Shown here: piece by piece, positions 2,705 through 48,134 of the stretch
Layout: each line of letters starts with the position of its first letter
How positions within the stretch are numbered: the stretch's first letter is position 1
IMG/VR virus record: IMGVR_UViG_2651869782_000034
Length of the DNA stretch: 48,134 nt
Origin: a virus
Lineage: Duplodnaviria > Heunggongvirae > Uroviricota > Caudoviricetes
Reading direction: 5' to 3' (one strand)
Translations under genes and position numbers: made by a program
The notes under the pieces: generated by a model
The model's database searches: none
Told to the model about the DNA's origin: nothing
Seen by the model: the letters and a program-made list of their open reading frames with translations, nothing else

Positions 2705-2865
2705 ATCGCATTCAGATATTTGTTTTGATTCACTGATGGAAAAGAATTTCTCTTAAGCAATCCCTCTCTCGATGGCATTGGCTTTACGCGTTGGCGAATA
2801 ATCATTTCTGCCGGAAGAATGCCGGGATTGTATGCAAGTCCTCTCATGGTAAATTCCTCAGTCAT
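2683..2865 (-). CDS. Hypothetical small protein
   Basis: ATG at 2865 overlaps upstream stop (ATGACTGA), translational coupling. Confidence 0.4.
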
Positions 2866-3154
2866 TACTGATAGCGCCATAGCGTGAGCGGTAATTACGC
2901 AGGCGCGGGTCGATATATTCAGGGAAGTGGGTATATGTGGCTTTGCGGAATGGTCGGATTGATGTCTGGTAAATTCGCTCGCGTTCTTCTTTCTCTGCAA
3001 GCCATATACAGTGGCGAAATTCCTTTTCCTCTTTCGTTTCCTGCGGTAGCGACATTATCCGATCGTAGTTTTTTCTGAATTTATCCAGCACCTCCGATAC
3101 GGAATTGCCGGAACAGCGGCGCGGGTCATCCACACCATACAGAGGCACTGGCAT
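2858..3154 (-). CDS. Hypothetical protein
   Basis: 98-aa ORF, AAGGA RBS 7 nt upstream of ATG 3154. Confidence 0.5.
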
Positions 3155-13140: not shown

Positions 13141-13682
13141 TGTATATATGAATGCTTAAATATGGTGGAACATAATGAGAAATATAAGCAACATAGACGA
13201 ATTAAGAAATAAATTATCATATGATGATGTTTTAGGTGCACTTAGATGGAAAGTGTCTCCTTCTAATAATGTTAAGGTTGGCAGTGTTGCTGGTTACATT
13301 AGGAGTGATGGTTATAGGATGTTAACTATCGATGGTGTAATTACTTATGCTCACCACGTTATATGGATGATAAATAATGGTGAGATTCCATTAGGGTATA
13401 AAATTGATCATATAAATGGAGTAAGGTCAGATAATAGGCTATCTAATCTTCGATTGGTTACACACCAACAGAATGCACAGAACCAAAAGAGAAAAATAAC
13501 CAATTCGTCAGGAGTGACTGGAGTGTATTTCAATAAAGAGAGATGCAAGTGGATTGCGAATATATGCGTAGATGGGCGCACCAAATATCTTGGAATATTT
13601 GCTAGCATCATTGACGCTATTGCAGAAAGGAAGAGGGCAGAAAAAGAACTGGGTTTTCATGAAAACCATGGCAGACCATAAC
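13141..13682 (+). mobile_element. Free-standing homing endonuclease gene insertion (AT-rich)
   Basis: Insert sits between two in-register halves of ninF and is visibly more AT-rich than flanks. Confidence 0.65.
13175..13681 (+). CDS. HNH homing endonuclease with AP2 DNA-binding domain
   Basis: HNH motif IDHINGVRSDNRLSNLRLVTHQQN; AP2-like GVTGVYFNKERCKWIANICVDGRTKYLGIFASIIDAIAER. Confidence 0.8.
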   Translation: MRNISNIDELRNKLSYDDVLGALRWKVSPSNNVKVGSVAGYIRSDGYRMLTIDGVITYAHHVIWMINNGEIPLGYKIDHINGVRSDNRLSNLRLVTHQQNAQNQKRKITNSSGVTGVYFNKERCKWIANICVDGRTKYLGIFASIIDAIAERKRAEKELGFHENHGRP

Positions 13683-14543: not shown

Positions 14544-15192
14544 TGGCAGCAAATACCGAAATATTTGGGTAGTTGGCGATCTGCACGGATGCTACACGAA
14601 CCTGATGAAAAAACTGGAGACGATAGGATTCGACACCAAAAAAGACCTGCTTATCTCGGTTGGCGATTTGGTCGATCGCGGTACAGAGAACGTCGAATGT
14701 CTGGAATTAATCACATTCCCCTGGTTCCGAGCTGTACGTGGAAACCATGAGCAAATGATGATTGATGGCTTATCAGAGCGTGGAAACGTCAATCACTGGC
14801 TGTTTAATGGCGGTGGCTGGTTCTTTAATCTCGATTACGACAAAGAAATTCTGGCTAAAGCTCTTGCCCATAAAGCAGGTGAACTTCCGTTAATCATCGA
14901 ACTGGTGAGCAAAGGTAAAAAATATGTCATCTGCCACGCCGATTATCCTTGTGATAAATACGAGTTTGGAAAGCCAGTTGATCATCAGCAGGTAATCTGG
15001 AACCGCGAACGAATCAGCAACTCACAAGACGGGATCGTGAAAGAAATCAAAGGCGCGGACACGTTCATCTTTGGTCATACGCCAGCAGTGAAACCACTCA
15101 AGTTTTCCAACCAGATGTATATCGATACCGGCGCAGTGTTCTGCGGAAACCTCACATTGATTCAGGTACAGGGAGAAGGCGCGTGGGCATAA
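14521..15192 (+). CDS. ninI: NinI serine/threonine protein phosphatase
   Basis: Metallophosphatase motifs GDLHG, GDLVDRG, GNHE; ATG 14521. Confidence 0.85.
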
Positions 15193-15701
15193 GAGAACTA
15201 AACCTCACCAAAGAGCAGCACGAGTGGCTGAATGGCTGGCTTGAACTGTGGGGCGCATGGGTTTATTCAGGTCGTCTGGAAAAGCGCATGAGCAGCGTAA
15301 TAGCGAAGTTCATGGAGAGCGTAGAGCCGGGAAGAGTTATGACAAGGCCAATGTGCAATGATGATGATGGAATGTTGATTTCTCAGGTCGTCGATTCCGT
15401 CATGTACATTGACAAAAAAGCCTTTGGCATCCTCCTCAGCTACTACGCTCATGGTTCATCTAAGCGAGCAATTGCATCCTACTATCACGCGACTGCAAAG
15501 CCACGCAAGATGTGTGGACGTGGTGGCGATGGATGGAGAAAACCTTCACTGGCAACCTGTAGAAACGAAATTGACGACATCCTGAAAGCGTCATTATTTG
15601 TTTTGTACCAACCAATGCAAAATGCTTTCAAAATGCGTAAACGTGTTGAGAAAGTTAAGCATGTTGCTGTTAAAAACCTTGACATGCAATTAGCCATTTA
15701 G
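15183..15701 (+). CDS. Late-gene antiterminator Q-like protein
   Basis: Position between ninI and pR'/terminator/lysis genes; GTG start; Cys-containing basic protein. Confidence 0.6.
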
Positions 15702-15708
15702 CCATAAT
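15679..15708 (+). promoter_or_regulatory. Candidate late promoter pR' (-35 TTGACA, -10 CATAAT, 18-bp spacer)
   Basis: TTGACA at 15679-15684 and CATAAT at 15703-15708 overlapping the Q gene 3' end. Confidence 0.45.
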
Positions 15709-15717
15709 TAGAGGGTA

Positions 15718-15760
15718 AGCTGCCGTTAGTGACTCTTAAGTTGCAACGGTGGCTTTTTTT
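15718..15760 (+). terminator. Candidate tR' terminator
   Basis: Imperfect hairpin (ccgtt...aacgg) followed by GGCTTTTTTT. Confidence 0.4.
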
Positions 15761-15764
15761 ATTT

Positions 15765-15839
15765 GGGTCAGTCGTATAAAGGTCATTACGGAAGGCTGTT
15801 AACCTTCTTATCGTGGTTCGAGTCCACGCTGTCCCGCCA
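15765..15839 (+). tRNA. tRNA-Asn-like (anticodon GUU), slightly degenerate stems
   Basis: Anticodon arm GAAGG-CTGTTAA-CCTTC, T arm CGTGG-TTCGAGT-CCACG, 3' CCA; one mismatch each in acceptor and D stems. Confidence 0.5.
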
Positions 15840-15844
15840 AATAT

Positions 15845-15920
15845 GCTGGTTTAGCTCCAATGGTAGAGCAGTCGCCTTGTAAGCGAATGGGTAGCGGTTC
15901 AAGTCCGTTAACCAGCACCA
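15845..15920 (+). tRNA. tRNA-Thr (anticodon UGU)
   Basis: Perfect 7-bp acceptor stem GCTGGTT/AACCAGC, D arm GCTC..GAGC with GG, anticodon loop CTTGTAA, T loop TTCAAGT, discriminator A plus CCA. Confidence 0.75.
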
Positions 15921-16008
15921 TAACTGAGCCGTAGCCACTGGCTATCCTGAATTCATCAGTGATAGTTACGCTGCGGCCTTCTACACATGACCTTCGTGAA
16001 AGCGGGTG

Positions 16009-16043
16009 GCAAGAGGTTGCGCTAACAACCTCCTGCCGTTTTG
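16009..16043 (+). terminator. Candidate hairpin terminator downstream of tRNAs
   Basis: GCAAGAGGTTG-cgctaa-CAACCTCCTGC followed by CGTTTT. Confidence 0.35.
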
Positions 16044-16162
16044 CCCGTGCACATCGGTCACGAACAAATCTGATTACTAAACACAGTAGCCTGGATTTGT
16101 TCTATCAGTAATCGACCTTATTCCTAATTAAATAGAGCAAATCCCCTTATTGGGGGTAAGAC

Positions 16163-16486
16163 ATGAAGATGCCAGAAAAACATGACCTGTTAGCCGCCAT
16201 TCTCGCGGCAAAGGAACAAGGCATCGGGGCAATCCTTGCGTTTGCAATGGCGTACCTTCGCGGCAGATATAATGGCGGTGCGTTTACAAAAACAGTAATC
16301 GACGCAACGATGTGCGCCATTATCGCCTGGTTCATTCGTGACCTTCTCGACTTCGCCGGACTAAGTAGCAATCTCGCTTATATAACGAGCGTGTTCATCG
16401 GCTACATCGGCACTGACTCGATTGGTTCGCTTATCAAACGCTTCGCTGCTAAAAAAGCCGGAGTAGAAGATGGTGGAAATCAATAA
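16163..16486 (+). CDS. S: Holin S (class I, dual-start MKM)
   Basis: [66 protein letters not shown] matches lambda S. Confidence 0.9.
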
Positions 16487-16946
16487 TCAACGTAAGGCGT
16501 TCCTCGATATGCTGGCGTGGTCAGAGGGAACAGATAACGGACGTCAGAAAACCAGAAATCATGGTTATGACGTCATTGTAGGAGGAGAGCTATTCACTGA
16601 TTACTCCGATCACCCTCGCAAACTTGTCACGCTAAACCCAAAACTCAAATCAACAGCAGCCGGGCGCTATCAGCTTCTTTCCCGTTGGTGGGATGCCTAT
16701 CGTAAGCAGCTTGGCCTGAAAGACTTCTCTCCGAAAAGCCAGGACACTGTGGCATTGCAGCAGATTAAAGAGCGTGGCGCTTTACCGATGATTGATCGCG
16801 GTGATATCCGTCAGGCTATCGACCGTTGCAGCAATATATGGGCTTCACTTCCGGGCGCTGGTTATGGTCAGTTCGAGCATAAGGCTGACAGTCTGATTGC
16901 AAAATTCAAAGAAGCAGGCGGAACGGTCAGAGAGATTGAGGTATGA
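16470..16946 (+). CDS. R: Endolysin R (lytic transglycosylase)
   Basis: [49 protein letters not shown] matches lambda R. Confidence 0.9.
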
Positions 16947-17380
16947 GCAGAGTAACCGCGATTATTTCCGCTCTGGTTATCTGCATCATCGTCTGCCTGT
17001 CATGGGCTGTTAATCATTACCGTGATAACGCCATCGCCTACAAAGCCCAGCGCGACAAAGCCACATCCATCATCGCTGACATGCAGAAGCGTCAACGTGA
17101 CGTAGCAGAACTCGACGCCAGATACACAAAGGAGCTTGCTGATGCTAACGCGACTATCGAAAGTCTCCGTGCTGATGTTTCTTCTGGTCGTAAGCGCCTG
17201 CAAGTCGCCGCCACCTGTGCAAAGTCAACGACCGGAGCCAGCGGCATGGGCAATGGAGAAACCCCAGGACTTACAGCAGATGCTGAACTCAATTATTACC
17301 GTCTCCGAAGTGGAATCGACAAGATAACCGCGCAGGTTAACTACCTGCAGGAGTACATCAGGACGCAATGCCTGAAATAA
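16943..17380 (+). CDS. Rz: Rz i-spanin
   Basis: N-terminal TM anchor then coiled coil; start overlaps R stop. Confidence 0.85.
17136..17327 (+). CDS. Rz1: Rz1 o-spanin lipoprotein embedded in the +1 frame of Rz
   Basis: Lipobox LVVSAC then Pro-rich [16 protein letters not shown]; entirely inside Rz. Confidence 0.7.
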
Positions 17381-35023: not shown

Positions 35024-35223
35024 GTAAAGAATGTTGTTTCTGCGGCATTAGCGAATCAGACGCTGATCAAACATACATTTACTCTAAAGAAACAGGTCGG
35101 ATGCTGTGTAGTGACTGCGTGTTGGACATCATAAGATACAAGCATCTTGGATGTTCTGCCAGCATTAGCAATATAGGTGAAGTATATGAAGGGAAAGATA
35201 TAACTGATAGAGCAGAAAGTTGA
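35020..35223 (+). CDS. Small zinc-ribbon-like protein between arc and ant
   Basis: Two Cys pairs (CCFCG ... CSDC); ATG overlaps arc stop. Confidence 0.45.
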   Translation: MSKECCFCGISESDADQTYIYSKETGRMLCSDCVLDIIRYKHLGCSASISNIGEVYEGKDITDRAES

Positions 35224-35285
35224 AGCCCCAACTGCGGTAACAGTCAGGGCTTCGGTATCAACAAATCGTCTTAGGAAATATTGAC

Positions 35286-36164
35286 ATGAAAAGTATAGCA
35301 AAGGCACAAAACGATTTCACCATCTTCAAATTCGGCGACAGTGAAATCCGCGTCATCAACAAGTGCGGTGAGCCGTGGTTTGTAGCTAAAGATGTTTGTG
35401 ATGCTTTAGCTTTGACTAACTCACGCAAGGCGCTTACTGCACTTGATGACGATGAAAAGGGAGTAACTTTAAGTTACACCCTTGGTGGTGAGCAGAATCT
35501 AAGCATTGTGAGCGAATCAGGTATGTATACATTGGTTCTGCGCTGCCGCGATGCAGTCAATAAAGGTTCAGTCCCGCACAAATTCCGCAAGTGGGTAACA
35601 GCAGAAGTTCTGCCTTCAATTCGCAAACATGGCGAGTATGTTAAAGGAAAGAAAACCACTGTTGAGGAAAGAACACCGCTACGCGATGCAGTAAACATGC
35701 TGGTAGGAAAGAAAGGACTTCGCTATGACGATGCATACAATATGGTTCATCAGCGTTTTGGTATTGACAGCATTGATGAACTTTCAATTGAACAAATCCC
35801 GCAAGCTGTAGAGTACATCCACAGGGTAGTGCTTGAAGGTGAGTTCATCGGCAAACAAGAGAAGAAAACCAACGAGCTTTCTGCAAAAGAAGCAAACAGC
35901 CTTGTATGGTTATGGGATTATGCCAACCGCTCACAGGCATTATTCCGCGAACTGTATCCGGCGCTAAAACAAATTCAATCGAACTATTCCGGCAGATGTC
36001 ATGACTGCGGTTATGAGTTCTCCCGTATTATCGATATGGCGAGAGATGTTTTAATCAACCATACACGAGATGTTGATATTAATGAGCCAGACGGACCAAC
36101 GAATCTTTCCGCATGGATGAGACTTAAGAATAAAGAATTACCTCCTTCAGTACATAACTACTGA
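35286..36164 (+). CDS. ant: Antirepressor Ant (Bro-N domain)
   Basis: Bro-N motif [30 protein letters not shown]; follows arc as in P22 immI. Confidence 0.85.
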
Positions 36165-36264: not shown

Positions 36265-38427
36265 ATGACAGACATTACAGCCAATGTTGTAGTGAGTATG
36301 CCTTCGCAACTCTTCACTATGGCGCGCTCTTTTAAAGCCGTAGCCAATGGCAAAATTTATATCGGAAAAATTGACACTGACCCGGTAAATCCAGAAAACC
36401 AGATCCAGGTTTATGTGGAGAACGAAGATGGCTCTCATGTTCCTGTTTCGCAACCAATCATCATTAACGCTGCTGGTTACCCGGTATATAACGGACAAAT
36501 TGCCAAATTCGTTACTGTACAGGGCCATTCTATGGCTGTTTATGATGCATACGGTGCGCAGCAGTTTTATTTCCCTAATGTGTTGAAGTATGAGCCGGAT
36601 CAATTAAGGTTGGAGCTTGAATCATCTGGTGGAGCAGGATTGATAGGTGGTGTTTCGAAGCCTATTACTTTTTTTGGTGCTATTGGTGATGGATTAACAA
36701 ACAATACGCAGGCATTTAACGATGCAGAGATATTAGAATTCAATGACATCTACATTCCTGATGGTGTTTATAATGTAAATAATATTAACTTAAATAAGAG
36801 ATATTGGGGGCCTGGCATAGTAGTGATTAATTACCAGACTGAATATTCTGGCTCTGGTGTTAACGACATGACCGTGTCAGGAATATACAATGGACAGCAA
36901 GATCTAAATGCAATTGTAAGAATAAAAGAAGCTTCAAATCCTGATAAGCTTGAATTCAGTACAGATAATGGAGTTACATGGCATGACACGATAGACGTGT
37001 ACAATCCAATCGATGACAGTGTATCTCCGCAACCAATCGTAATACTTGCAGGCGGGGTGGATTTTTTCGTGAGTGGATTGAAGATAAACTTTTCTTCAAC
37101 CACTGGACATACAGTAAATGACTCATGGTCATTTTTCATTCCTTCCAATCCATCAGTAATAAACACGGGAAGTGGCAGCATCGTTAAATCAGGAAGCGTT
37201 ATTTTTAATGTTAGCGGAAACAATGATACTAATACTTCCGCTGGAAAAGACTCATTAGGCGGTGGAAACGTAGGAGCTAACAATACCGCATATGGGTGGA
37301 AGAGTTTGCACTCAAACACTACAGGATACGCAAATACCGCGTCTGGGATTCAGTCTATGGAAAACAATAAGACTGGTAAAAACAATTGTGCATACGGTGC
37401 TGATTCTCTAAGAGCTAACGTATCTGGTTCTGATAACGTAGCGGTTGGGGTCTTTGCGTCCGGAGCAAACACAACCGGGTACGGTAACACTGGACTTGGT
37501 AACGATGCCAATAGGTACAATGAAACAGGATTCGGAAATACCGCAGCGGGTGTGCAGGCACTGTACCACAACAAGGCCGGTAATGAGAACACAGCTTTCG
37601 GTGAATACGCATTACGCGGAGGAAATTCCAGCCTACCTACGGGAACATCCATTCAGTATTCCGTCGCTGTAGGAGCTAAAGCCGGTTTCAACGCGTTAGG
37701 TAATAATAATACAGCTATAGGTTACGAGGCGCTATATTCTGCATCAGGATCTGATAATGTTGGTATTGGATTCGATGCAGGGTTTAAAGTAACGGCTGGT
37801 GCTTTCAATGTATTTTTAGGTTCTAATTCTGGTAACGGGTCAGAGCAGGCTACAGATGTGACAAACTGCGTCCTTATCGGAGATAATACAAAATCAACCG
37901 GAAGTAACGCAGTAGCTATCGGTAGTGGGGTAATTGCCGCTCAGAATACTGTAGCTATAGGTAATAGTGAGCATGAATTATTCTTGCATTATGGGAAATT
38001 TATACCACAAATTGATAATGCTTTTGATATTGGTGGGCCGGATGCGAGATATAAAACAATATATGCAACTACAGGAATGATAAATACATCAAATGAAATG
38101 TTGAAAACAAAACTAACAGACATTGATGTTGCTGAAAAAAAAGCTGCACTAGAAATAAAAGATAATATTAAAAAGTTTAAGATGCTGGATTCTGTTGAGG
38201 TAAAGGGATTTGATGGTGCTAGGTGGCATTTTGGTGTTGGAGCTCAAACTGTTGGTAATATAATGAGGAAGCACGGACTTGATCCTAGTAAGTATGGGTT
38301 TTGGTGTCACGATAAAACGCATCGCGAACACATGACTGGAAATATAGATATCTTTTGTGAAAGTTATGGTATAAGATATGACGAACTTGCAATGTTTATA
38401 TTGGCATCAATATCTTTATGTGAATAA
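36265..38427 (+). CDS. Tailspike: P22-type head-binding N-domain, repeat-rich beta-helix, C-terminal S74-like chaperone domain
   Basis: [11 protein letters not shown]...[19 protein letters not shown]...VTVQGHSMA matches P22 gp9 N-domain; NTAxGxxAL repeats; SNEMLKTK near C-terminus. Confidence 0.9.
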
Positions 38428-38519: not shown

Positions 38520-39150
38520 CATCAATCCAGTCCGCCCACCACTGCATCATTTCTCTGCGCTTAACGTAGCGGATGCCTCACTATCACACGGTGATAGTCC
38601 ATTGCTGCTTTGAAGAATGGATAGAGAACTGAGGATAAAAAGATATCCCAAAACCCAAAATCTCATCTTTAGGATTTGCAGAAAGGTAGGCGTGAACAAA
38701 TACCTGCGCATGAAAACGGAACTAGTCCAGATGTGATGTTTGTGGTGATCACATACATCATTAACGATGCTCGTTATGGTGAGTTTGATGACTACCCGCT
38801 GAAGTGAAAATTGTGTTGTGTACCAAATTGCGTACCAAACTAAAATCACAAATCATGAAACCCTTGTTCATGGCGGTTCTTAGGGGTGTTGCGCGTAATC
38901 GTGAAACAAAAAGGTAGATTGTTGCTTACCGTCATTCATCATTAGGTTAAATCCGTTATTTCTGCTGTCTGCCAGAGTATCAAATATCACCGTGCTAATC
39001 AGCTTTAGCGCGACAATTTGGCAGCGAGTGGCAACAGATCATGTCAGATAAAAATGAGGTAGTAGTCACATTTTCTTGCACTTTATTCCAGCCAGTTCAT
39101 AAGTATTTCCGTAAAAAGAACAGCTATTTGAAACACCTGAGGGTTTGCTG

Positions 39151-40317
39151 TTGAAACGCCGTCTTATTATTGCTGCTTCTTTGTTCGTTTTTAATTTATC
39201 GTCTGGTTTTGCGGCGGAAAACATTCCTTTTTCACCTCAGCCTCCAGAGATTCATGCCGGGTCCTGGGTATTGATGGATTACACCACCGGTCAGATTCTC
39301 ACCGCGGGTAATGAGCATCAACAGCGCAATCCCGCCAGCCTGACAAAGCTGATGACGGGCTATGTCGTGGATCGTGCTATCGATAGTCATCGCATTACGC
39401 CAGACGATATTGTCACCGTGGGGCGCGATGCGTGGGCGAAAGATAATCCGGTGTTTGTCGGTTCTTCACTGATGTTTCTGAAAGAGGGCGATCGCGTATC
39501 GGTACGTGATTTAAGCCGTGGTTTAATTGTGGATTCCGGAAATGACGCTTGTGTTGCTCTGGCTGACTATATTGCCGGTGGGCAACGGCAGTTTGTTGAA
39601 ATGATGAACAACTATGCCGAGAAGCTGCATCTCAAGGATACGCATTTTGAAACAGTGCATGGTCTGGATGCACCTGGCCAGCATAGCTCGGCTTATGATT
39701 TAGCTGTGCTTTCTCGCGCTATCATCCACGGCGAGCCCGAGTTTTATCATATGTACAGTGAGAAAAGCCTCACCTGGAACGGTATCACTCAGCAAAACCG
39801 TAACGGGTTATTGTGGGATAAAACCATGAATGTTGACGGCCTGAAAACGGGTCATACTTCTGGTGCCGGGTTTAATCTCATTGCTTCGGCTGTGGATGGG
39901 CAGCGTCGTCTCATTGCAGTGGTAATGGGGGCTGACAGTGCAAAAGGTCGTGAGGAAGAGGCAAGAAAATTACTGCGTTGGGGGCAACAAAACTTTACTA
40001 CGGTGCAAATTTTGCACCGTGGGAAAAAGGTCGGAACGGAACGCATCTGGTATGGCGATAAAGAAAATATCGCCCTGGGAACGGAACAAGAGTTCTGGAT
40101 GGTGCTACCGAAAGCCGAAATTCCACATATCAAAGCCAAATATACCCTTGATGGTAAAGAACTCACCGCGCCAATTAGCGCCCATCAGCGGGTAGGGGAA
40201 ATTGAACTTTATGACCGTGATAAACAGGTGGCGCACTGGCCGCTGGTTACCCTGGAATCTGTCGGGGAAGGCAGCATGTTTTCCCGGCTGAGTGATTATT
40301 TCCACCATAAGGCCTGA
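39151..40317 (+). CDS. dacD: D-alanyl-D-alanine carboxypeptidase DacD (PBP6b)
   Basis: Signal peptide and SxxK, SGN, KTG penicillin-binding motifs; sequence recognised as E. coli DacD; TTG start. Confidence 0.9.
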   Translation: MKRRLIIAASLFVFNLSSGFAAENIPFSPQPPEIHAGSWVLMDYTTGQILTAGNEHQQRNPASLTKLMTGYVVDRAIDSHRITPDDIVTVGRDAWAKDNPVFVGSSLMFLKEGDRVSVRDLSRGLIVDSGNDACVALADYIAGGQRQFVEMMNNYAEKLHLKDTHFETVHGLDAPGQHSSAYDLAVLSRAIIHGEPEFYHMYSEKSLTWNGITQQNRNGLLWDKTMNVDGLKTGHTSGAGFNLIASAVDGQRRLIAVVMGADSAKGREEEARKLLRWGQQNFTTVQILHRGKKVGTERIWYGDKENIALGTEQEFWMVLPKAEIPHIKAKYTLDGKELTAPISAHQRVGEIELYDRDKQVAHWPLVTLESVGEGSMFSRLSDYFHHKA

Positions 40318-40435
40318 CCTTTCTTTTGCAGCAGACTGGCAGGAGTGCGAGTCTGCTCGCATAATCAACACTCATTCCTTGTGGTTTTAATATTGCAACT
40401 ATACTGTATATAAAAACAGTGTTAGTGGAGGCGTT

Positions 40436-40909
40436 ATGAACTACGAGATTAAGCAGGAAGATAAACGTACCGTTGCAGGTTTCCATCTTGTTGGCCCGTG
40501 GGAGCAGACGGTAAAGAAAGGTTTTGAGCAGTTGATGATGTGGATAGATAGCAAAAATATTGTGCCGAAGGAGTGGGTTGCTGTCTATTACGACAATCCG
40601 GATGAAACACCCGCCGAAAAATTACGCTGCGACACCGTCGTGACGGTACCGAATAACTTTACGCTCCCCGAAAACAGTGAGGGCGTCATTCTGACAGAAA
40701 TTTCAGGTGGTCAGTATGCGGTGGCGGTGGCTCGTGTAGTCGGTGATGATTTTGCTAAACCCTGGTATCAGTTCTTTAATAGCCTCTTGCAGGACAGTGC
40801 CTATGAAATGTTACCAAAGCCCTGCTTCGAGGTTTACTTGAACAATGGCGCGGAAGATGGGTACTGGGATATCGAAATGTATGTTGCGGTGCAGCCAAAA
40901 CATCACTAA
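40436..40909 (+). CDS. sbmC: DNA gyrase inhibitor SbmC (GyrI)
   Basis: [39 protein letters not shown] recognised as SbmC. Confidence 0.9.
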
Positions 40910-41106
40910 TTCATCTCAGGGCGGTGTGTTGACGCGAAGACCACTCTTTTTTTGAAAGTGAAAAGAGTAAGATGCGCCTTTCAATTTTTTCGCTCCTGCC
41001 GGGAAATTACACTGTTCCCGGTTTGTCCGTCGGATAATTCAGAGGCGCGCCTTCTGGCCGACAGATGAGTTATGAGCGCTTTTAATCTTCATTACGGAGT
41101 TTCTGT

Positions 41107-42165
41107 GTGCGTGCCGATAAGTCATTAAGCCCGTTTGAAATCTGGGTATACCGCCATTACCGCATTGTGCATGGTACTCGGGTCGCGCTGGCATTCCTGC
41201 TCACTTTTCTCATTATCCGCCTGTTTACTATCCCGGAAAGCACCTGGCCGCTGGTCACCATGGTGGTGATTATGGGGCCAATCTCGTTCTGGGGGAACGT
41301 TGTCCCTCGTGCCTTCGAACGTATTGGCGGTACGGTGTTGGGTTCGATTTTAGGTCTTATCGCTCTGCAACTGGAGTTAATTTCGTTACCGCTGATGTTA
41401 GTCTGGTGCGCGGCGGCGATGTTTCTTTGCGGTTGGCTGGCGCTGGGCAAGAAACCGTATCAAGGATTATTGATTGGGGTGACGCTGGCAATTGTTGTGG
41501 GTTCCCCGACAGGTGAAATTGATACGGCGTTATGGCGAAGCGGCGATGTGATCCTCGGCTCTTTACTGGCAATGTTGTTTACCGGTATCTGGCCACAACG
41601 CGCGTTCATCCACTGGCGCATTCAACTGGCGAAAAGTCTGACCGAGTATAATCGGGTCTATCAATCGGCATTCTCACCGAACTTACTCGAACGCCCACGT
41701 CTGGAAAGCCATCTACAAAAACTGCTGACCGATGCCGTGAAAATGCGTGGGCTGATTGCGCCCGCCAGCAAAGAAACCCGTATTCCAAAATCGATATATG
41801 AAGGTATCCAGACCATTAATCGCAATCTGGTTTGTATGCTGGAGTTGCAAATCAATGCATACTGGGCCACGCGCCCCAGCCATTTCGTGTTATTGAACGC
41901 GCAAAAACTTCGTGATACCCAGCACATGATGCAGCAAATACTGCTGAGCCTTGTTCATGCGCTGTACGAAGGTAATCCGCAGCCGGTTTTTGCCAATACG
42001 GAAAAATTGAACGATGCTGTGGAAGAGCTGCGTCAGTTGCTGAATAACCACCATGACCTGAAGGTTGTGGAAACACCAATCTATGGTTATGTGTGGCTGA
42101 ACATGGAAACGGCACATCAGCTTGAGTTGCTATCGAGTCTGATTTGCCGGGCCTTGCGCAAATAA
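41107..42165 (+). CDS. yeeA: Inner membrane protein YeeA
   Basis: GTG start; multi-TM N-terminus; recognised as E. coli YeeA. Confidence 0.85.
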   Translation: MRADKSLSPFEIWVYRHYRIVHGTRVALAFLLTFLIIRLFTIPESTWPLVTMVVIMGPISFWGNVVPRAFERIGGTVLGSILGLIALQLELISLPLMLVWCAAAMFLCGWLALGKKPYQGLLIGVTLAIVVGSPTGEIDTALWRSGDVILGSLLAMLFTGIWPQRAFIHWRIQLAKSLTEYNRVYQSAFSPNLLERPRLESHLQKLLTDAVKMRGLIAPASKETRIPKSIYEGIQTINRNLVCMLELQINAYWATRPSHFVLLNAQKLRDTQHMMQQILLSLVHALYEGNPQPVFANTEKLNDAVEELRQLLNNHHDLKVVETPIYGYVWLNMETAHQLELLSSLICRALRK

Positions 42166-42336
42166 TTCCTGAACTTCAGAATCATCTTGCTGCTGCTTCG
42201 ATTCAGCAAGGATAAAGGGTATGATAGTGAAAAGGGATAAAAGCATTGTCATCTGCGGCAGCTATGAGTAATGTTGGCCCTAACGAATAGCGGTTGCTTA
42301 AACGAATCCGACTCTCACATTATCAGGGGTATAAAA

Positions 42337-42666
42337 ATGGAAACTACCAAGCCTTCATTCCAGGACGTACTGGAATTTGTTCGTCTGTTCCGTCGTAAGA
42401 ACAAACTGCAACGTGAAATTCAGGACGTTGAGAAAAAGATCCGTGACAACCAGAAGCGCGTCCTGTTGCTGGACAACCTGAGCGATTACATCAAGCCAGG
42501 GATGAGCGTTGAAGCAATCCAGGGCATCATCGCCAGCATGAAAGGTGACTATGAAGATCGCGTTGACGATTACATCATCAAAAATGCCGAGCTCTCCAAA
42601 GAACGCCGCGATATCTCCAAAAAGCTGAAAGCTATGGGCGAAATGAAAAACGGCGAAGCGAAGTAA
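42337..42666 (+). CDS. yeeX: YeeX (DUF496)
   Basis: [41 protein letters not shown] recognised as YeeX. Confidence 0.8.
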
Positions 42667-42766
42667 TTCCTGTTTTATTCAATGAGGGTTGCCCGGCAAC
42701 CCTCAGTGCTCATTGATTCTTATCTGTGTATCACCGTCATCATTCTCATCTGAGAACCTATCGAAA

Positions 42767-42960
42767 TTAGCGACAGCCTTCTTCTGTATGCAGCAAGGCA
42801 AAAAGTTCTGTAACTCCATTGTTATTAACCGCACTGGTTACTAACACGTTGTGCGCTCCAGCTTCCCGTAACCAACATTTCACCAAAGATGTTTGTTCCA
42901 TACTGGCTAAATCTGCTTTGGTTACTACTCCAATGACCGGGTGATTCATGGCCCGGTAGG
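42767..42960 (-). pseudogene. C-terminal fragment of YeeP/YfjP-like GTPase
   Basis: PVIGVVTKADLA...AGAHNVLVTSAVNNNGVTELFALLHTE resembles GTPase C-terminus; no N-terminus; abuts IS66 remnant. Confidence 0.35.
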
Positions 42961-43019
42961 GCGTTTTTACCTCTAATTCCTGCTTCAGCGCTGAGATTCC
43001 TGCTTGTTGCCGGAAAAGC

Positions 43020-43187
43020 AGGCACCTGCCGTCTGAACGGTATCGATCCGGAAGCGTATCTGCGCCATATTCTGAGCATACTGCCGGAATGGCCCTCCAA
43101 CCGTGTTGACGAACTCCTGCCATGGAACGTAGTTCTCACCAATAAATAAGCGTCAATACGGTGCTCCGTTGACGCTTACTTTAATCC
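43020..43187 (+). mobile_element. IS66-family remnant: transposase 3' end plus terminal inverted repeat
   Basis: Encodes CRLNGIDPEAYLRHILSILPEWPSNRVDELLPWN; followed by GCGTCAATACGGTGCTCCGTTGACGCTTAC (reverse complement starts GTAAGCG). Confidence 0.55.
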
Positions 43188-43563
43188 GTTTTCTGAGCTT
43201 AGATTTTTCTGTTCCTACCCAGACCGTGGATTTGGAATTCATTTTTTGTCAGGTCAATGCTAATCGTTAAAACGGCCATAACGCACCTCCACTGGAAGGT
43301 TTATCAGTAATATCCTACCGTTGCTTCATGGTCGGGGCGTCCATTCCATTATTATCGGTTTTCCTTTCTGTTTATAAATGAAAACGCCAGCTGTATTCAG
43401 GCTGGCGTCAGGGGAAATGAAGCCTGTTGAGTGAGATTCACCGGTTCTGGTGCAGAAGCTGCAGATGGCGCAGGGTAAGGACATCTTCTCTTGCCTGCTT
43501 AATACAGGACAACAGTGCTGTTTCTGTGGTTAATGGCACTATACCCTGCATCACTGCATTGTC

Positions 43564-43758
43564 TTACAGCAACTGGTGAGGGCTGGCATAAGTTGCCGGT
43601 GTTTCGGTAGAGTCACGGTCATCCACCACGCGGAGTGAATAACCGTTTTCAGCGGCCTTATTAATCAGTTCAGTGATATTAACACCATCAATGTCAACGA
43701 CAATGTGCCCCATATCCAGCGCCTGTACGTTAACGCTGTCGGCTTCCAGTGTCATCAT
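43564..43758 (-). CDS. yeeW: YeeW
   Basis: 64-aa ORF recognised as CP4-44 YeeW; immediately downstream of cbtA. Confidence 0.65.
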   Translation of the reverse strand: MMTLEADSVNVQALDMGHIVVDIDGVNITELINKAAENGYSLRVVDDRDSTETPATYASPHQLL

Positions 43759-44128
43759 TTCGCCTCCGGATACTTACCCAGGGTAATGTTATTTACCGTT
43801 CTGTAATTGTCGCGGGTCATCAGGCCGGTCGCCCTGCGAGCCCGGAGGATATCGATGCTGTTTATTAACTGAGAGCGGGTACAGGCGCTGAATCCCGGCT
43901 GGTCGGTAGCACCAGCGCGTATTTTTCCACGAGAAAGTTCACCGCATCACACAGTGAAATGCCTGCCTCAATATGCTGCTCAATCACACGTTCATCGGCA
44001 AAAGGTGTGTCATTCTGTGTGAGGCCATAGTGCTGGTCCAGCAGTCGGGACAGCAGTATCTGCCAGATTTCAACAGGAGACGGGCGAGAACTGGCCGCCT
44101 GCCCGGGTAATACAGGTAATGTTTTCAT
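43759..44128 (-). pseudogene. cbtA: cbtA (yeeV) toxin gene with frameshift
   Basis: N-terminal 73 aa match CbtA then frame is lost ([11 protein letters not shown]); C-terminal TRDNYRTVNNITLGKYPEAK is present in another frame at 43759-43815. Confidence 0.6.
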
Positions 44129-44216
44129 ACTGAAGATTTTCCTGATATGCAGATATAAAAATGGAAAAGTGGCGTGGTGAAAACACCAGGCCGTAGCAGA
44201 AGGCTATTCTGGAGAG

Positions 44217-44585
44217 TTAATTTTTCATTTCGGGCGTCGGATAAACAGCCAGATAAACGTAACCACAACTGCTGAGGGTATCGGCTTTGCAGGTCAGCCC
44301 TTTTGCATACAGCGTGACGGTATGCTGATGGCGGGGATTCAGTTCACCGCTGGTGAGCATGAGTTCCAGTTGTTTCATCAGCAGCGGAAAGGCCTGGTCC
44401 AGGTGGTACGCATCTGCATCGCTGAACAGGCCTCTGATACCGGCGCGGTCGGCAAGGTAATGCAACCGGTTACCCTCCTGCACCAGACGTGCCCCGAAAC
44501 AGGGCGTCACGGTGCAGGGCAGCCCCCACCAGGGGCGGTCGTGATTGTCGTCGGGAAGTGTTGTCCCGGGGAGTGTGTCTGACAC
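44217..44585 (-). CDS. cbeA: CbeA (YeeU) antitoxin
   Basis: 122-aa ORF recognised as CbeA. Confidence 0.85.
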   Translation of the reverse strand: MSDTLPGTTLPDDNHDRPWWGLPCTVTPCFGARLVQEGNRLHYLADRAGIRGLFSDADAYHLDQAFPLLMKQLELMLTSGELNPRHQHTVTLYAKGLTCKADTLSSCGYVYLAVYPTPEMKN

Positions 44586-44658
44586 GATAAAATCCTTACA
44601 GAAAATCGGCTAAGAATGGTCCGGTAGTGGCGATAATTCTGCTCATCAGAATTCCCAC

Positions 44659-44880
44659 TCAGTTCAGGGTGACGCTCATCAGCCGGACATACGGACCAAA
44701 ACTGTCCTTACGGCGTTCAGCAAACACGGCCAGCACACCGGGAATATCCTGCACTTCACGACCGGTATACGCTTCAGCACTGCCGTGCCAGCGGTATTTA
44801 CCGGTACAGAACGGAAAAAGACGGGATGTCGGATGTTGTTGGTGAATACGCATGGCTTCACCACGGGTGATAATTTTCAT
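44659..44880 (-). CDS. yeeT: YeeT (DUF987)
   Basis: 73-aa ORF recognised as YeeT. Confidence 0.8.
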   Translation of the reverse strand: MKIITRGEAMRIHQQHPTSRLFPFCTGKYRWHGSAEAYTGREVQDIPGVLAVFAERRKDSFGPYVRLMSVTLN

Positions 44881-44942
44881 AATGGGATACCTCTGAAGAC
44901 AGAAGATAAAAGTGAAAACAGGTGTGATGTGGTTGTGAAGGG

Positions 44943-45419
44943 TTAAAGCAGACCATGTTCGGCAAAGGAGAAAACCTGGTTGCCACCGACTATCAGATGG
45001 TCCGGCACCCGGATATCCACCAGGCCCAGTGCCTGTACCAGACGTTCGGTGATAAGCCGGTCTGCCTTACTGGGTGTGACTTCACCGGACGGGTGATTGT
45101 GTGCCAGTACCACGGCAGCGGCATTGTGGTACAGGGCGCGTTTAATCACTTCCCGGGGATGGACTTCCGTGCGGTTGATGGTGCCGGTGAAGAGGGTTTC
45201 ACCGGCAATCAGCTGATTCTGGTTGTTCAGATACAGCACCCGGAATTCTTCACGCTCCAGTCCCGCCATGTTCAGAATCAGCCATTCCCGTGCTGCACGG
45301 GTGGAGGTGAAGGCCACGCCGGGTTCATGAAGATGGCGGTCCAGGGTTTTCAGGGCCCGTTGAATGAGGCTGCGCTCGCCGGGCGTCATCTCTCCGGGCA
45401 GAAAGGAAAGTTGTTGCAT
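44943..45419 (-). CDS. yeeS: YeeS, RadC-like JAB-domain protein
   Basis: JAMM-like motif HNHPSGEVTPSKAD; start MQQLSFLPGE. Confidence 0.8.
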   Translation of the reverse strand: MQQLSFLPGEMTPGERSLIQRALKTLDRHLHEPGVAFTSTRAAREWLILNMAGLEREEFRVLYLNNQNQLIAGETLFTGTINRTEVHPREVIKRALYHNAAAVVLAHNHPSGEVTPSKADRLITERLVQALGLVDIRVPDHLIVGGNQVFSFAEHGLL

Positions 45420-45434
45420 TGTGCTTCTCTCCAT

Positions 45435-45914
45435 TCAGTCGATGATGCGCATAATGGCGCTGCATTCCGGATGCTGCAGGGCGTAATCCCGCAACCGGTA
45501 ATAATGAACCGTCATGGCATAATTCTCCGTACGACAGGCATGATGACTGTACGTCATCAGACAGGCGGTAATACCGGCGGCTTCCGGGCTCATTTCTGCG
45601 CGGTTACCGTTCATGGCATTGAACAGTACCCATGTTTCGTCATCATCATCATCCGGTTCGGGTGCCATAAATGCCCCGCCGTTGTTCAGGGTGTACAGAT
45701 TCCAGATACCACCGCAGTAGTCTTCGCACAGACGGTCCATCCAGCCGAAGACACGGGGCTCCAGGGTCACCCACTGTGGAATGAGGCCAAAATGCTGCGG
45801 CCAGAAGCTGATGCGCTGTTCATCAGGGACGAGGCTGGCAACCAACTGAGGCGGATTATTCTCTGGTGTTGTAGCTGAATAAATTGTGGGGGTATTCTGA
45901 GAAACGGTTTTCAT
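45435..45914 (-). CDS. Antirestriction protein (ArdB/KlcA-like)
   Basis: 159-aa acidic protein in the usual position upstream of radC-like gene in CP4 elements. Confidence 0.65.
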   Translation of the reverse strand: MKTVSQNTPTIYSATTPENNPPQLVASLVPDEQRISFWPQHFGLIPQWVTLEPRVFGWMDRLCEDYCGGIWNLYTLNNGGAFMAPEPDDDDDETWVLFNAMNGNRAEMSPEAAGITACLMTYSHHACRTENYAMTVHYYRLRDYALQHPECSAIMRIID

Positions 45915-45995
45915 GAGATAACTCCTTAAATAACAAATAAATGTGTGTTTTTCAGGAACGAAAGCTGAATGATTCCCTCACTCAGGGAAACGGCA

Positions 45996-46814
45996 TCAGC
46001 GCAGGCTCTCCAGCATCGTTTCTGCCATCACCCACAATGCGCGATTGAGCTTAATGTCGGTATCAATGCTGTGAATGGCCCGGGTATGGATACGTTTTCC
46101 TTTTGCACTGCGACCGGAAATCCCGCCTTTCAGCATATTCTCCTGGATGGTCTGATATGCGCTCCACAGGTCCTTACCGTAATCCTCCCGGCGTCGCGGC
46201 GTCAGAATGTCGGCGGTGGTGACGGGCTGATGTTCGTCACCATAACGGTAAGTCAGTGCCGCCTGTGCCAGCGCCTGGCGTGCCGGTGGCGGCAGGACCA
46301 GCGACTGCATGGCATCACGCTTCTCCTCTATCCGGTCAAACACGCCCACCACCTCGTAAGCCCCTTCGATAACTTTCTCCACTACATTTCCCCGGTGTGG
46401 AACACGCACTTCCCCCAGAGACTGGCCACAGACGCCCCCGTTCTGGCAGACGAACCTGAAGTAACCCGGCAGCATCTGGTAGCTGGAGGTACCGTCATGA
46501 GAGTTGAGCAGAATAATTTCAGGGACATGTTCTCCGTTTATCTCTCCGGCCCGCCGCAGACGCAGCATGTGTTTTGTGTATCCCCGGCGGCCCGGGTCGC
46601 GCACACGGGTCTGGCAGGCGAAGAACGGCTGAAAGCCTTCCCGCTGCAGATTTTCCAGGACGGTAATGGTGGGAATGTACGCATACCGTTCACTGCGGGA
46701 GGTATGCCGGTCTTCCCCAAAAATACTGGGTACATAGTGCATCAGTTCTTCGTGTGTCAGCGGACGGTCACGGCGTATCTGGTTTACATGACCAAAACGA
46801 CTTGCTAATCGCAT
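45996..46814 (-). CDS. DUF932-family protein
   Basis: 272-aa ORF in the position of DUF932 genes of CP4-type elements. Confidence 0.6.
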   Translation of the reverse strand: MRLASRFGHVNQIRRDRPLTHEELMHYVPSIFGEDRHTSRSERYAYIPTITVLENLQREGFQPFFACQTRVRDPGRRGYTKHMLRLRRAGEINGEHVPEIILLNSHDGTSSYQMLPGYFRFVCQNGGVCGQSLGEVRVPHRGNVVEKVIEGAYEVVGVFDRIEEKRDAMQSLVLPPPARQALAQAALTYRYGDEHQPVTTADILTPRRREDYGKDLWSAYQTIQENMLKGGISGRSAKGKRIHTRAIHSIDTDIKLNRALWVMAETMLESLR

Positions 46815-47024
46815 GATTTGCTCCTTATGAATGAGTTAGCGGTATAAATGAAAAAGCTGCGTCTCCCGGAGAAGACGCGGCCTGACGGGTGAAATGAATA
46901 AGGTTTATTGTCTGAGAGGCCTTTCACTGGCGAGCCACGCATTAAGCGGCTTTCCGGTAACAATGGCTGGGGCTGTATTTACCTTTGATATTAATAATGT
47001 GCAGAGAAACGCATGGTTTACTCC

Positions 47025-47435
47025 TTAGATTTTAAGTTTGTCCTGGGCTACAACGACAGGTTTTCCGGATGTGTCGATGACTCCTACCGTCGGTACGCCA
47101 TTTTTGATTTCGAAGAACGGTTTGTTGCTACCTGAGCACAGTTGATTGTCCCCGTATTCAATCATTTGTGCTTTCCCGGTTTTCAGGTTAACTACCGAGA
47201 CAGTGTAGTCGTAGCACCAGGCACCACCACGTTCAAGCACGAAAACATAGCTGTTATCTTTATAGTTGAACTGATTCTTTGTCTGGCAATTCATACCGTC
47301 AATTTCGGTACAGGAAAACGCTTCTGTAGTATTAACGTATTTGATGTTATTTGGCAGTTTTACTTGTTTCGCAGTAGCGAAGACAGAGAACAGAATAGTT
47401 ACAGCAACGAGTAAAGTTTTGATAAAAGTTTTCAT
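47025..47435 (-). CDS. Secreted hypothetical protein
   Basis: Signal peptide MKTFIKTLLVAVTILFSVFATA; four Cys. Confidence 0.5.
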   Translation of the reverse strand: MKTFIKTLLVAVTILFSVFATAKQVKLPNNIKYVNTTEAFSCTEIDGMNCQTKNQFNYKDNSYVFVLERGGAWCYDYTVSVVNLKTGKAQMIEYGDNQLCSGSNKPFFEIKNGVPTVGVIDTSGKPVVVAQDKLKI

Positions 47436-47450
47436 GATAGACTCCTTAAA

Positions 47451-48134
47451 TTAGTTAACCGCAGCTACGTAGTTTTTCACCAGATACGCGAATTCATGCA
47501 CGCCAATTTCACCGAACCAAACCAGGTAGGCCGGGTCATCTAAACCAAAGTAACGGTAGCCAACAACTTCATGGGTTTTTGGGTTATAGAGTGTTACGAT
47601 AAAGTCCCAGCCGCAGGTATTGGCTTTGCAACCGTCGCCCTGGAACCAGACTGTACCGTTAATGTTTACTGGCGTGATACCTCCACCAGGGCCATCCATA
47701 TAGCCGCCTTTACCGAACATGCCGCTCAGTCCGACCGGTTTTAATGCTTTGTCGATAGCGGCTTTGTAGGTAGCGTCACCTTCGTACAACTCGTACGTTG
47801 ATGGACACGCTCCAGGTTGTTCAGCCCAGGCTTCTGGGTTACAACTAAGAGCTTGTTTTACGGTAGCCGCTTCTGCGTTAAAGTTAAAGCCCGTGAACAG
47901 AACCGCCAGAAATAACATAAGGGTATGTAAACGTTTCATTGTAAATATTCTTCCGTTGTAAATGGCGCTGGAAAATTTCTCATCAGTGAAACCTTCCGGA
48001 AGTTTCCCCCCCTTGTATGATGTATATCGCCAGTATTTTATTTCATCCCGGCTGTAATTTTTATATTCCCCGGCACGTGCAATAACGCTGACCAGAGATA
48101 TAAGGCTCATTAATAACTTTACAGGTAATTTCAT
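47451..48134 (-). CDS. Secreted hypothetical protein (start uncertain: ATG 48134 at window edge or internal ATG 47936)
   Basis: ORF begins at the last base of the window; internal MKRLHTLMLFLAVLFTGFNFNAEA is a second signal-peptide-like segment. Confidence 0.4.
   Translation of the reverse strand: MKLPVKLLMSLISLVSVIARAGEYKNYSRDEIKYWRYTSYKGGKLPEGFTDEKFSSAIYNGRIFTMKRLHTLMLFLAVLFTGFNFNAEAATVKQALSCNPEAWAEQPGACPSTYELYEGDATYKAAIDKALKPVGLSGMFGKGGYMDGPGGGITPVNINGTVWFQGDGCKANTCGWDFIVTLYNPKTHEVVGYRYFGLDDPAYLVWFGEIGVHEFAYLVKNYVAAVN

Follow-up and report, generated by a model that had tools for sequence, protein, structure and literature searches.

Two tRNA genes in the late leader of a P22-like Escherichia coli prophage and their possible role as nuclease-resistant replacements

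Two tRNA genes lie in the leader of the late operon of an Escherichia coli prophage, ahead of the lysis genes, and the locus raises the question of whether both of them work and what they do for the phage. The whole stretch of DNA analysed here (the window, 48,134 bp) is a P22-like prophage whose nearest relatives are phiv205-1, CUS-3 and Sf6, and it lies in the E. coli chromosome beside dacD and a CP4-44-like island. An ORF at 39145-40317 was considered as an integrase gene and rejected, because it is host dacD (PF00768). In the window ARAGORN found exactly two tRNA genes, one for Asn and one for Thr, both on the + strand, and Rfam called the same two. A sequence-only reading of this DNA had placed two tRNA genes at this site, between a late promoter with its terminator and the lysis genes, and had proposed tRNA-prediction software as a check. 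Both elements are scored as tRNAs by ARAGORN, and the neighbouring features have the arrangement that was described, and position 15679, the leftmost given in that reading, opens the -35 hexamer of what scores as a strong promoter. The features to which the text refers are as follows.

2858-3154, - strand: Abc2, anti-RecBCD protein (Pfam PF11043, E = 7.8e-61)
15183..15701, + strand: antiterminator Q of the phage 21 type (Pfam PF06530, Phage_antitermQ, E = 1.4e-25)
15679..15708, + strand: late promoter pR' (-35 TTGACA at 15679-15684, -10 CATAAT at 15703-15708)
15717..15762, + strand: intrinsic terminator tR', hairpin and U7 run, in the short late leader
15765-15839, + strand: tRNA-Asn(GUU), 75 nt (ARAGORN; Rfam RF00005, 55.3 bits, E = 2.5e-9)
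15845-15920, + strand: tRNA-Thr(UGU), 76 nt (ARAGORN; Rfam RF00005, 61.5 bits, E = 5.2e-11)
15921..16162, + strand: structured non-coding stretch of the late leader, up to the ribosome-binding site of S
16163..17380, + strand: lambda-type lysis cassette S, R and Rz, with which the protein genes of the late operon begin
16163-16486, + strand: holin S (Pfam PF05106; Sf6 and lambda annotations agree)
16470-16946, + strand: endolysin R (Sf6 and lambda annotations agree)
16943-17380, + strand: Rz (Pfam PF03245; Sf6 and lambda annotations agree)

The two genes and their leader

The promoter scan gave 11 of 12 hexamer matches and an 18-nt spacer for pR', which overlaps the 3' end of Q. The Q protein itself is 86% identical to that of phage 21 over 162 aa. 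A direct repeat, ATTAGCCA/TTTAGCCA, can be read from the sequence at 15689-15704, where phage 21 has its Q-binding element (QBE), annotated between -35 and -10 (OL657228.1). The same promoter sequence is annotated as pR' in the Sf6 and HK75 records too, and the register with phage 21 would put the transcription start near 15715. The best fold of tR' has a free energy of -21.1 kcal/mol (z = -4.5), which none of 200 shuffled sequences equalled, and phage 21, Sf6 and HK75 have the identical sequence annotated as terminator. tR' is the presumed target of Q antitermination. The 5' end of tRNA-Asn lies only 2-3 nt past the U-run of tR', and the tRNAs can therefore be transcribed only by read-through of this terminator. 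Since there is no space for a promoter between tR' and tRNA-Asn, the source must be either pR', with Q-dependent read-through, or N-antiterminated transcription from upstream.

Both genes score well above the gathering score of 29 of the Rfam tRNA covariance model (RF00005). The anticodon loops are CUGUUAA in tRNA-Asn and CUUGUAA in tRNA-Thr, in agreement with the anticodons GUU and UGU assigned in the sequence-only reading, and both contain U33 and a purine at position 37. CCA is encoded at the 3' end of each tRNA, with G73 as the discriminator in tRNA-Asn and A73 in tRNA-Thr. The T-loops are UUCGAGU (Asn) and UUCAAGU (Thr), and the D-loop GG is present in both. One mismatch each in the acceptor and D stems of tRNA-Asn had been described previously, and the Rfam alignment identifies them as U4·U69 and U13·U22; the variable loop of this tRNA has 4 nt. 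tRNA-Thr had been described as having a perfect acceptor stem and canonical D and T arms. It does score as a tRNA, but G27·A43 do not pair at the foot of its anticodon stem, and C14 stands where A14 is usual, an exception to the features expected of an elongator tRNA. Its further features include the acceptor pairs G1-C72 and C2-G71 and the pair U28-A42. Both are bacterial elongator tRNA genes, and we read both as functional. An Rfam E-value scan of 15600-16200 found no other RNA family besides the two tRNAs. Elsewhere in the window, the P22 sar RNA at 35218-35284 is the only other Rfam match at the gathering threshold.

The stretch between tRNA-Thr and the holin gene (242 nt) is strongly structured, with one hairpin at 15928-15977, a second at 16008-16037 after which comes GUUUUG, and a fold of 15921-16040 with z = -5.0. 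No Rfam family matched 15921-16162. This stretch is near-identical in lambda and HK75, both of which are without the tRNAs, and it is therefore a generic part of the leader that lies outside the tRNA insert.

A cassette shared with phage 21, Sf6 and other phages

The Asn/Thr cassette of the late leader is already known and has long been annotated in phage 21 and Sf6. The arrangement pointed out in the sequence-only reading is not unusual; it is this same cassette. Both tRNAs are 100% identical to the phage 21 and Sf6 genes, and the 551 bp around the cassette are 97.6-99.5% identical to HF4s, Sf6, BTP1, SPN9CC and others. In the phage 21 genome (OL657228.1) tRNA-Asn is annotated at 39591-39665 and tRNA-Thr at 39671-39746, together with the -35 and -10 hexamers, QBE, transcription start, a sigma-dependent pause element and the terminator. 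The Sf6 record, from the Casjens laboratory, lists pR', qut, tR', tRNA-Asn and tRNA-Thr and describes them as "similar to phage 21". Some P22-like phages have tRNA genes at this place according to the phage L genome paper, which cites the Asn and Thr genes of Sf6 (PMC8022706). The same cassette is found in Sf6, BTP1, SPN9CC, SfI, Kapi1 and HF4s, and at least 80% of a 176-bp cassette query was matched in 361 of 5,426 complete E. coli genomes (about 7%). As a sequence feature it is therefore routine, the same two genes being annotated in phage 21, Sf6, BTP1 and many others.

The likeness to phage 21 covers the tRNAs, their order and 5-nt spacer, the tR' hairpin, the junction between them and the Q family (86%). 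The tRNAs and the terminator are 100% identical between the window and phage 21, and there is a single mismatch in the spacer. The segment with pR' and QBE, in contrast, is the Sf6/HK75 variant and is unlike that of phage 21, and the lysis genes are of the lambda type (S, R and Rz), whereas phage 21 has a pinholin and a SAR endolysin. Among the IMG/VR loci the cassette always follows directly after the U-run of tR', behind at least three types of leader, terminator and Q, which indicates that it moves as a unit between Q modules.

ARAGORN found no tRNA in the Q-S region of lambda or in the whole P22 genome, which confirms the earlier statement that neither phage has one at this position. In lambda and HK75 precisely the slot of the cassette is taken up by about 200 nt of non-tRNA filler. 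HK75 shares Q, pR', tR' and the downstream leader with the window, and its slot is filled by about 205 nt of lambda-like sequence in which nothing could be called; there is only a T-arm-like relic that scores 10 bits against the tmRNA model.

Other phages also carry small tRNA sets. Stx phages of the 933W type resemble the window in having tRNA genes, ileZ-argN-argO, in a Q-controlled lambdoid late leader, and we take these to occupy the same slot, downstream of Q and pR'. They differ in that their anticodons serve rare Ile and Arg codons and that the stx genes follow, and to our knowledge no role in nuclease resistance has been reported for them. The Stx2 phages that match the cassette have only about 34 nt in common with it, at its upstream (tR') end, and the tRNA genes of 933W-type phages number three (PMC4631060). 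P1, with trnA (Asn) and trnT (Thr), and SSU5-like elements with Asn-Thr(-Ser) clusters have adjacent Asn(GUU) and Thr(UGU) genes in the same order as the window. Their Thr tRNAs are about 80% identical to that of the window, and the anticodon stem of the window gene, GUCGC/GCGAA, recurs in one P1-like plasmid, whereas the P1 and SSU5-like Thr tRNAs retain CUG/CAG. In their Asn tRNAs the 5' half (acceptor and D arm) is unrelated, and blastn similarity is confined to the 3' part. These pairs lie outside a Q-controlled leader, that of P1 in the ban/tci region.

Conservation of the two tRNAs

Within the cassette, tRNA-Asn is conserved best: phage 21, Sf6, BTP1, JLK-2012 and ST-32 have the identical sequence, as do 84 of the 110 IMG/VR loci that contain the Asn anticodon arm. 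Most variation falls at D-loop position 20 and T-loop position 59, sites at which the structure tolerates change. U4·U69 is kept in nearly all copies, and single loci have G·U or U·G, which restores a wobble pair. The copies of the Asn gene vary too little for a covariation test. In variant cassettes the second slot varies and Asn is constant; JLK-2012 has a chimera of phage Thr and thrU plus a tRNA-Gly in the second slot, and ST-32, phage L and ST64T have a Leu(UAA)-like element. tRNA-Thr shows a compensatory change from G5-C68 to U5-A68 in five loci. In an alignment of the Thr family that took in P1 and phage-plasmid relatives, both partners have changed in 9 of the 21 pairs and pairing holds in 95% of cells; none of 500 shuffles reached this, and the covariation supports the cloverleaf. 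Positions 27 and 43 are unpaired in 15 of 18 sequences, and the short anticodon stem of tRNA-Thr is thus a conserved trait. As judged from these sequences, both tRNAs are under selection.

The sequence-only reading regarded the Asn element as degenerate and possibly a pseudogene, which would mean that it is a decaying tRNA and that only Thr works. Two mismatched stems, a variable loop of 4 nt and a single-sequence fold that is unexceptional (z = -1.7) can be cited for decay, but the element scores 55.3 bits against a threshold of 29 and its sequence is unchanged between phages of E. coli, Shigella and Salmonella with differing flanks; it stays constant among cassette variants whose second slot differs (Thr, a Thr/thrU chimera or a Leu-like element). 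One of the mismatches, U13·U22, also occurs at the same place in the functional glyT of E. coli. The known identity elements of tRNA-Asn, G34-U35-U36 and G73, are all present here. Decay of the Asn gene is, on this evidence, hardly credible, and we continue with two working tRNAs, while U4·U69 might impair charging of tRNA-Asn. The D arm resembles that of glyT at 16 of 18 positions by our own count. An origin of the Asn gene from a tRNA-Gly was considered and rejected, since the two tRNAs are unlike in the acceptor and anticodon stems and in the discriminator, and we treat the likeness as resemblance only.

Anticodon stems, tRNA nucleases and the role of the cassette

P2 Old is the effector of classic P2-lambda interference and is activated by inhibition of RecBCD (PMC12445682). 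By cutting host tRNA-Thr(UGU) at paired CNG motifs it severs the anticodon arm and kills the cell, and host asnT is also cleaved, more slowly than thrU (PMC12445682). Phage tRNA-Thr(UGU) species rescue cells from P2 Old by resisting cleavage (Govande et al. 2025, PMC12445682). The tRNA-Thr of phage 21 ("tRNAThr21") resists P2 Old and protects, whereas additional host thrU protects little or not at all (PMC12445682). The UGU anticodon is needed, as changing the anticodon in relatives of the window Thr abolishes rescue (PMC12445682). Protection by the phage Thr tRNAs is partial, with small colonies, and was obtained by expression from plasmids and not from a late leader (PMC12445682).

The window tRNA-Thr is, by the phage 21 genome record, the tRNAThr21 sequence. 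The two share the UGU anticodon, the short anticodon stem and U28-A42 in place of the CNG motif (Govande et al. 2025). At positions 28-30/40-42 the window has UCG/CGA and host thrU has CUG/CAG, so that both CNG motifs are lost, and the stem is shortened by the unpaired G27·A43 ahead of U28-A42. In the Asn tRNAs, the paired CNG motifs of host asnT, CGG/CCG, are replaced by AAG/CUU in the window. The setting differs from that of the nuclease-resistant tRNAThr21 and tRNAThr6, in that the window gene lies in the late leader of a prophage whose RecBCD inhibitor is Abc2 and not Gam. P22-like phages use Abc1/Abc2 rather than Gam. From the anti-RecBCD class of its activity, Abc2 is a likely trigger of Old-type guardians. 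A further nuclease, HepS, cuts Thr tRNAs, mainly those with GGU, and is triggered by a siphovirus tail tip (PMC13043305); it is therefore not invoked for this podovirus-type prophage.

[quoted passage not shown] 2025, PMC12409363). The cut falls at 40|41, next to U36-A-A-U39, where the resistant T5 variants are changed, and PARIS is neutralised when T5 variants of the three tRNAs are combined (PMC12409363). At positions 36-41 the Thr tRNAs have UAAGCG in the window, UAAUCA in the host and UAAGCA in T5, and the Asn tRNAs have UAACCU, UAAUCC and UAAGUU, respectively. U39 is absent from the window Thr, the window Asn and the T5 variants. The AriB determinant in the D-loop, U16, was placed with position numbering by eye. 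The window pair thus resembles the T5 set in two of its three anticodons and in the loss of U39, and differs from it in having no tRNA-Lys(UUU) and in being unrelated in sequence in the rest of the molecule. ARAGORN found no tRNA-Lys(UUU) in the window, and none is present among the cassette variants examined. Escape from PARIS required a resistant tRNA-Lys(UUU) (PMC12409363), and the cassette alone could therefore not defeat the characterised B185 PARIS system. The absence of U39 and of CNG motifs suggests that the phage tRNA-Asn, too, may be a nuclease-resistant replacement.

Codon usage was compared between 18 late and 22 early ORFs of the prophage and 34 ordinary E. coli genes. ACA occurs 16.3 times per 1000 codons in the late genes, 12.5 times in the early genes and 7.0 times in the host sample, which is a 2.3-fold enrichment in the late genes, and it makes up 29% of late Thr codons compared with 14% in the host sample. 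Asn codons occur 49.8, 46.1 and 36.7 times per 1000 in late, early and host genes, respectively, and are 1.36-fold more frequent in the late genes than in the host. For ACA the codon comparison proposed in the sequence-only reading thus bears out compensation of codon usage, but this rationale misses the function that experiments give the identical tRNA-Thr, resistance to P2 Old (PMC12445682).

These values fit a role in codon supply without any part in defence, in which the tRNAs would merely raise the number of decoders for over-used codons, and the phage L genome paper proposes such a role for the homologous Asn tRNA (PMC8022706). AGG, AGA and AUA, however, are more over-used than ACA, and the cassette supplies none of them. 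Asn codons are common in the host, which has four asn tRNA genes. In a published comparison, lambdoid phages with tRNAs proved no better adapted in codon usage than those without (PMC4631060). Supply by itself also leaves unexplained why, in both anticodon stems, the changes fall precisely on the determinants of Old and AriB, and why the identical tRNA-Thr resists P2 Old when additional host thrU hardly helps (PMC12445682). We therefore consider it rather unlikely that codon supply is the whole explanation. The tRNAs might instead serve as processing punctuation, with cuts by RNase P and RNase E detaching the Q-loading leader and determining where the late mRNA begins and how stable it is, while decoding would be incidental. 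A location within the leader of an mRNA of about 20 kb, with a very stable structured stretch directly after the tRNAs, would suit such a function, yet lambda and HK75 have that stretch just as well, with non-tRNA filler in the slot. The anticodons are strictly conserved, and the function of tRNA-Thr depends on decoding, as rescue is lost when the anticodon of its relatives is changed (PMC12445682). We regard punctuation as very improbable.

Our analysis favours a role in counter-defence. The cassette probably consists of two functional tRNAs in the untranslated late-operon leader of a P22-like (CUS-3/Sf6-like) E. coli prophage, which would be expressed by Q read-through and act as nuclease-resistant replacements against P2 Old and PARIS AriB, with a supply of ACA decoders in addition. 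In this scheme polymerase from pR' would normally halt at tR' after about 45 nt, until the phage-21-type Q modifies it and tR' is read through. Host RNase P and 3'-end nucleases would then release both tRNAs, and addition of CCA would be unneeded because CCA is encoded in both. While late proteins are made, the tRNAs would decode Asn codons and ACA even if their host counterparts are being cleaved, and would also add to the supply for ACA, a codon over-used by the phage. Both have rewritten anticodon stems and are not mere duplicates of host tRNAs. Dependence on Q and processing are predicted for this prophage. In an RNA-seq study of the BTP1 lysogen the identical tRNAs are named with the loci of TPM > 100 and set aside from that count, and the lytic operon starts right after the two tRNAs (PMC7067206). 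In our reading of that study the BTP1 tRNAs are highly expressed (PMC7067206); spontaneous induction of BTP1 is frequent, however, and this says little about their regulation.

A more specific version of this role, which we put forward tentatively, is that the cassette is a two-component counter-defence module. tRNA-Asn would then be a replacement resistant to Toprim tRNases as well, and between them the two would cover the secondary targets common to P2 Old and PARIS AriB, in lambdoid prophages whose anti-RecBCD proteins set off systems of this kind. U4·U69 and C14 could be further determinants against nucleases, and the changing second slot (Thr, Leu-like, or Thr plus Gly) might track the defence repertoire of the host species.

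The cassette may serve as an example of a small phage tRNA set that acts in counter-defence rather than as a correction of codon bias. What is new here is the prediction that the invariant tRNA-Asn resists Old and AriB as tRNA-Thr does. If this is true, resistance of the Asn tRNA would explain why the pair of Asn-GUU and Thr-UGU recurs in lambdoid phages, in P1 and in SSU5-like phage-plasmids.

Prophage context of the tRNA cassette

Outside the cassette, the features of the prophage and its host flank were as follows (window coordinates).

13175-13681, + strand: HNH_3 endonuclease ORF (PF13392, E = 1.2e-19)
35218-35284, - strand: sar antisense RNA, full-length (74.5 bits)
35286-36164, + strand: antirepressor ORF with Bro-N and P22_AR_C domains
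36265-38427, + strand: tailspike with P22-type head-binding, endosialidase catalytic and chaperone domains
39145-48134: host flank, including dacD (PF00768) and a CP4-44-like island
within 40400-48134: CP4-44-like island with yeeS, an antirestriction gene and DUF932

The full-length sar RNA adjoins the antirepressor ORF, and the prophage therefore has a P22-type immI region. The domain set of the tailspike is consistent with a CUS-3-like prophage that has specificity for the K1 capsule. The HNH_3 ORF is inserted in the nin region, with ninE-like genes on one side and ninG on the other, and probably encodes a homing endonuclease. No integrase was identified among the window ORFs scanned; 39145-40317 was considered as a candidate and rejected, as it is dacD. 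The prophage integrase gene may be located outside the window, past its left end.

The downstream leader and the tRNA slot without tRNAs

The leader that follows the tRNAs is highly structured, and the tRNA slot of lambda and HK75 is occupied by other sequence.

15928-15977 (window): very stable hairpin
16008-16037 (window): very stable hairpin
1160-1365 of L002 (phage HK75): non-coding filler in the tRNA slot
about 985-1190 of L133 (lambda): non-coding filler in the tRNA slot

Both hairpins lie within 15921-16045, a region with a fold z of -5.0 that is kept in lambda and HK75. The hairpin at 16008-16037 is terminator-like because GUUUUG follows it. No Rfam family matched this region. The filler is about 200 nt long in each of the two phages. 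The T-arm at the end of the HK75 filler, GCCGGTTCGATTCCGGC, is perfect and may be a relic of a tRNA.

Variant second slots

Related cassettes carry other elements after tRNA-Asn.

1591-1744 of L009 (phage JLK-2012): variant cassette, also found in about nine IMG/VR loci
about 1591-1665 of L010 (Salmonella phage ST-32): Leu(UAA)-like element in the second slot

The second tRNA of the JLK-2012-type cassette is a chimera, in which the 5' half of the phage tRNA-Thr is joined to thrU-like anticodon and T arms; its acceptor stem pairing is lost and ARAGORN made no call for it. Downstream of the chimera come first tRNA-Gly(UCC) and next tciA/tciB, as in P1. This layout suggests recombination between a phage tRNA operon and a host-type tRNA operon. 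The Leu(UAA)-like element of ST-32 has the anticodon loop CCUAAGA, with C33 instead of U33, and it also received no ARAGORN call. Phage L/ST64T has a second slot of the same type, and tRNAscan-SE identified such an element as tRNA-Leu in the phage L paper (PMC8022706).

Position 14 of tRNA-Thr and the Asn-Thr pair in phage-plasmids

The adjacent Asn(GUU)-Thr(UGU) pair was also found in phage-plasmids.

1425-1578 of L011 (P1): adjacent pair
comparison sequence L008: adjacent pair
2973-3125 of L005 (SSU5-like plasmid): adjacent pair

A14, whose partner is U8, is near-universal in tRNAs. The window tRNA-Thr has C14 (15858). U14 occurs at four IMG/VR loci, whereas A14 is present in the relatives from P1 and SSU5-like elements. 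Because the AriB model touches the D-loop, C14 could be a further putative anti-nuclease feature.

The P1-like and SSU5-like pairs have the same order as the window, with a spacer of 2 nt. Their tRNA-Thr is about 80% identical to that of the window. The 5' half of their tRNA-Asn is unrelated, and blastn similarity for tRNA-Asn is confined to the 3' part of the gene. Recurrence of the Asn(GUU)-Thr(UGU) pair in unrelated temperate elements is consistent with a common selective pressure.
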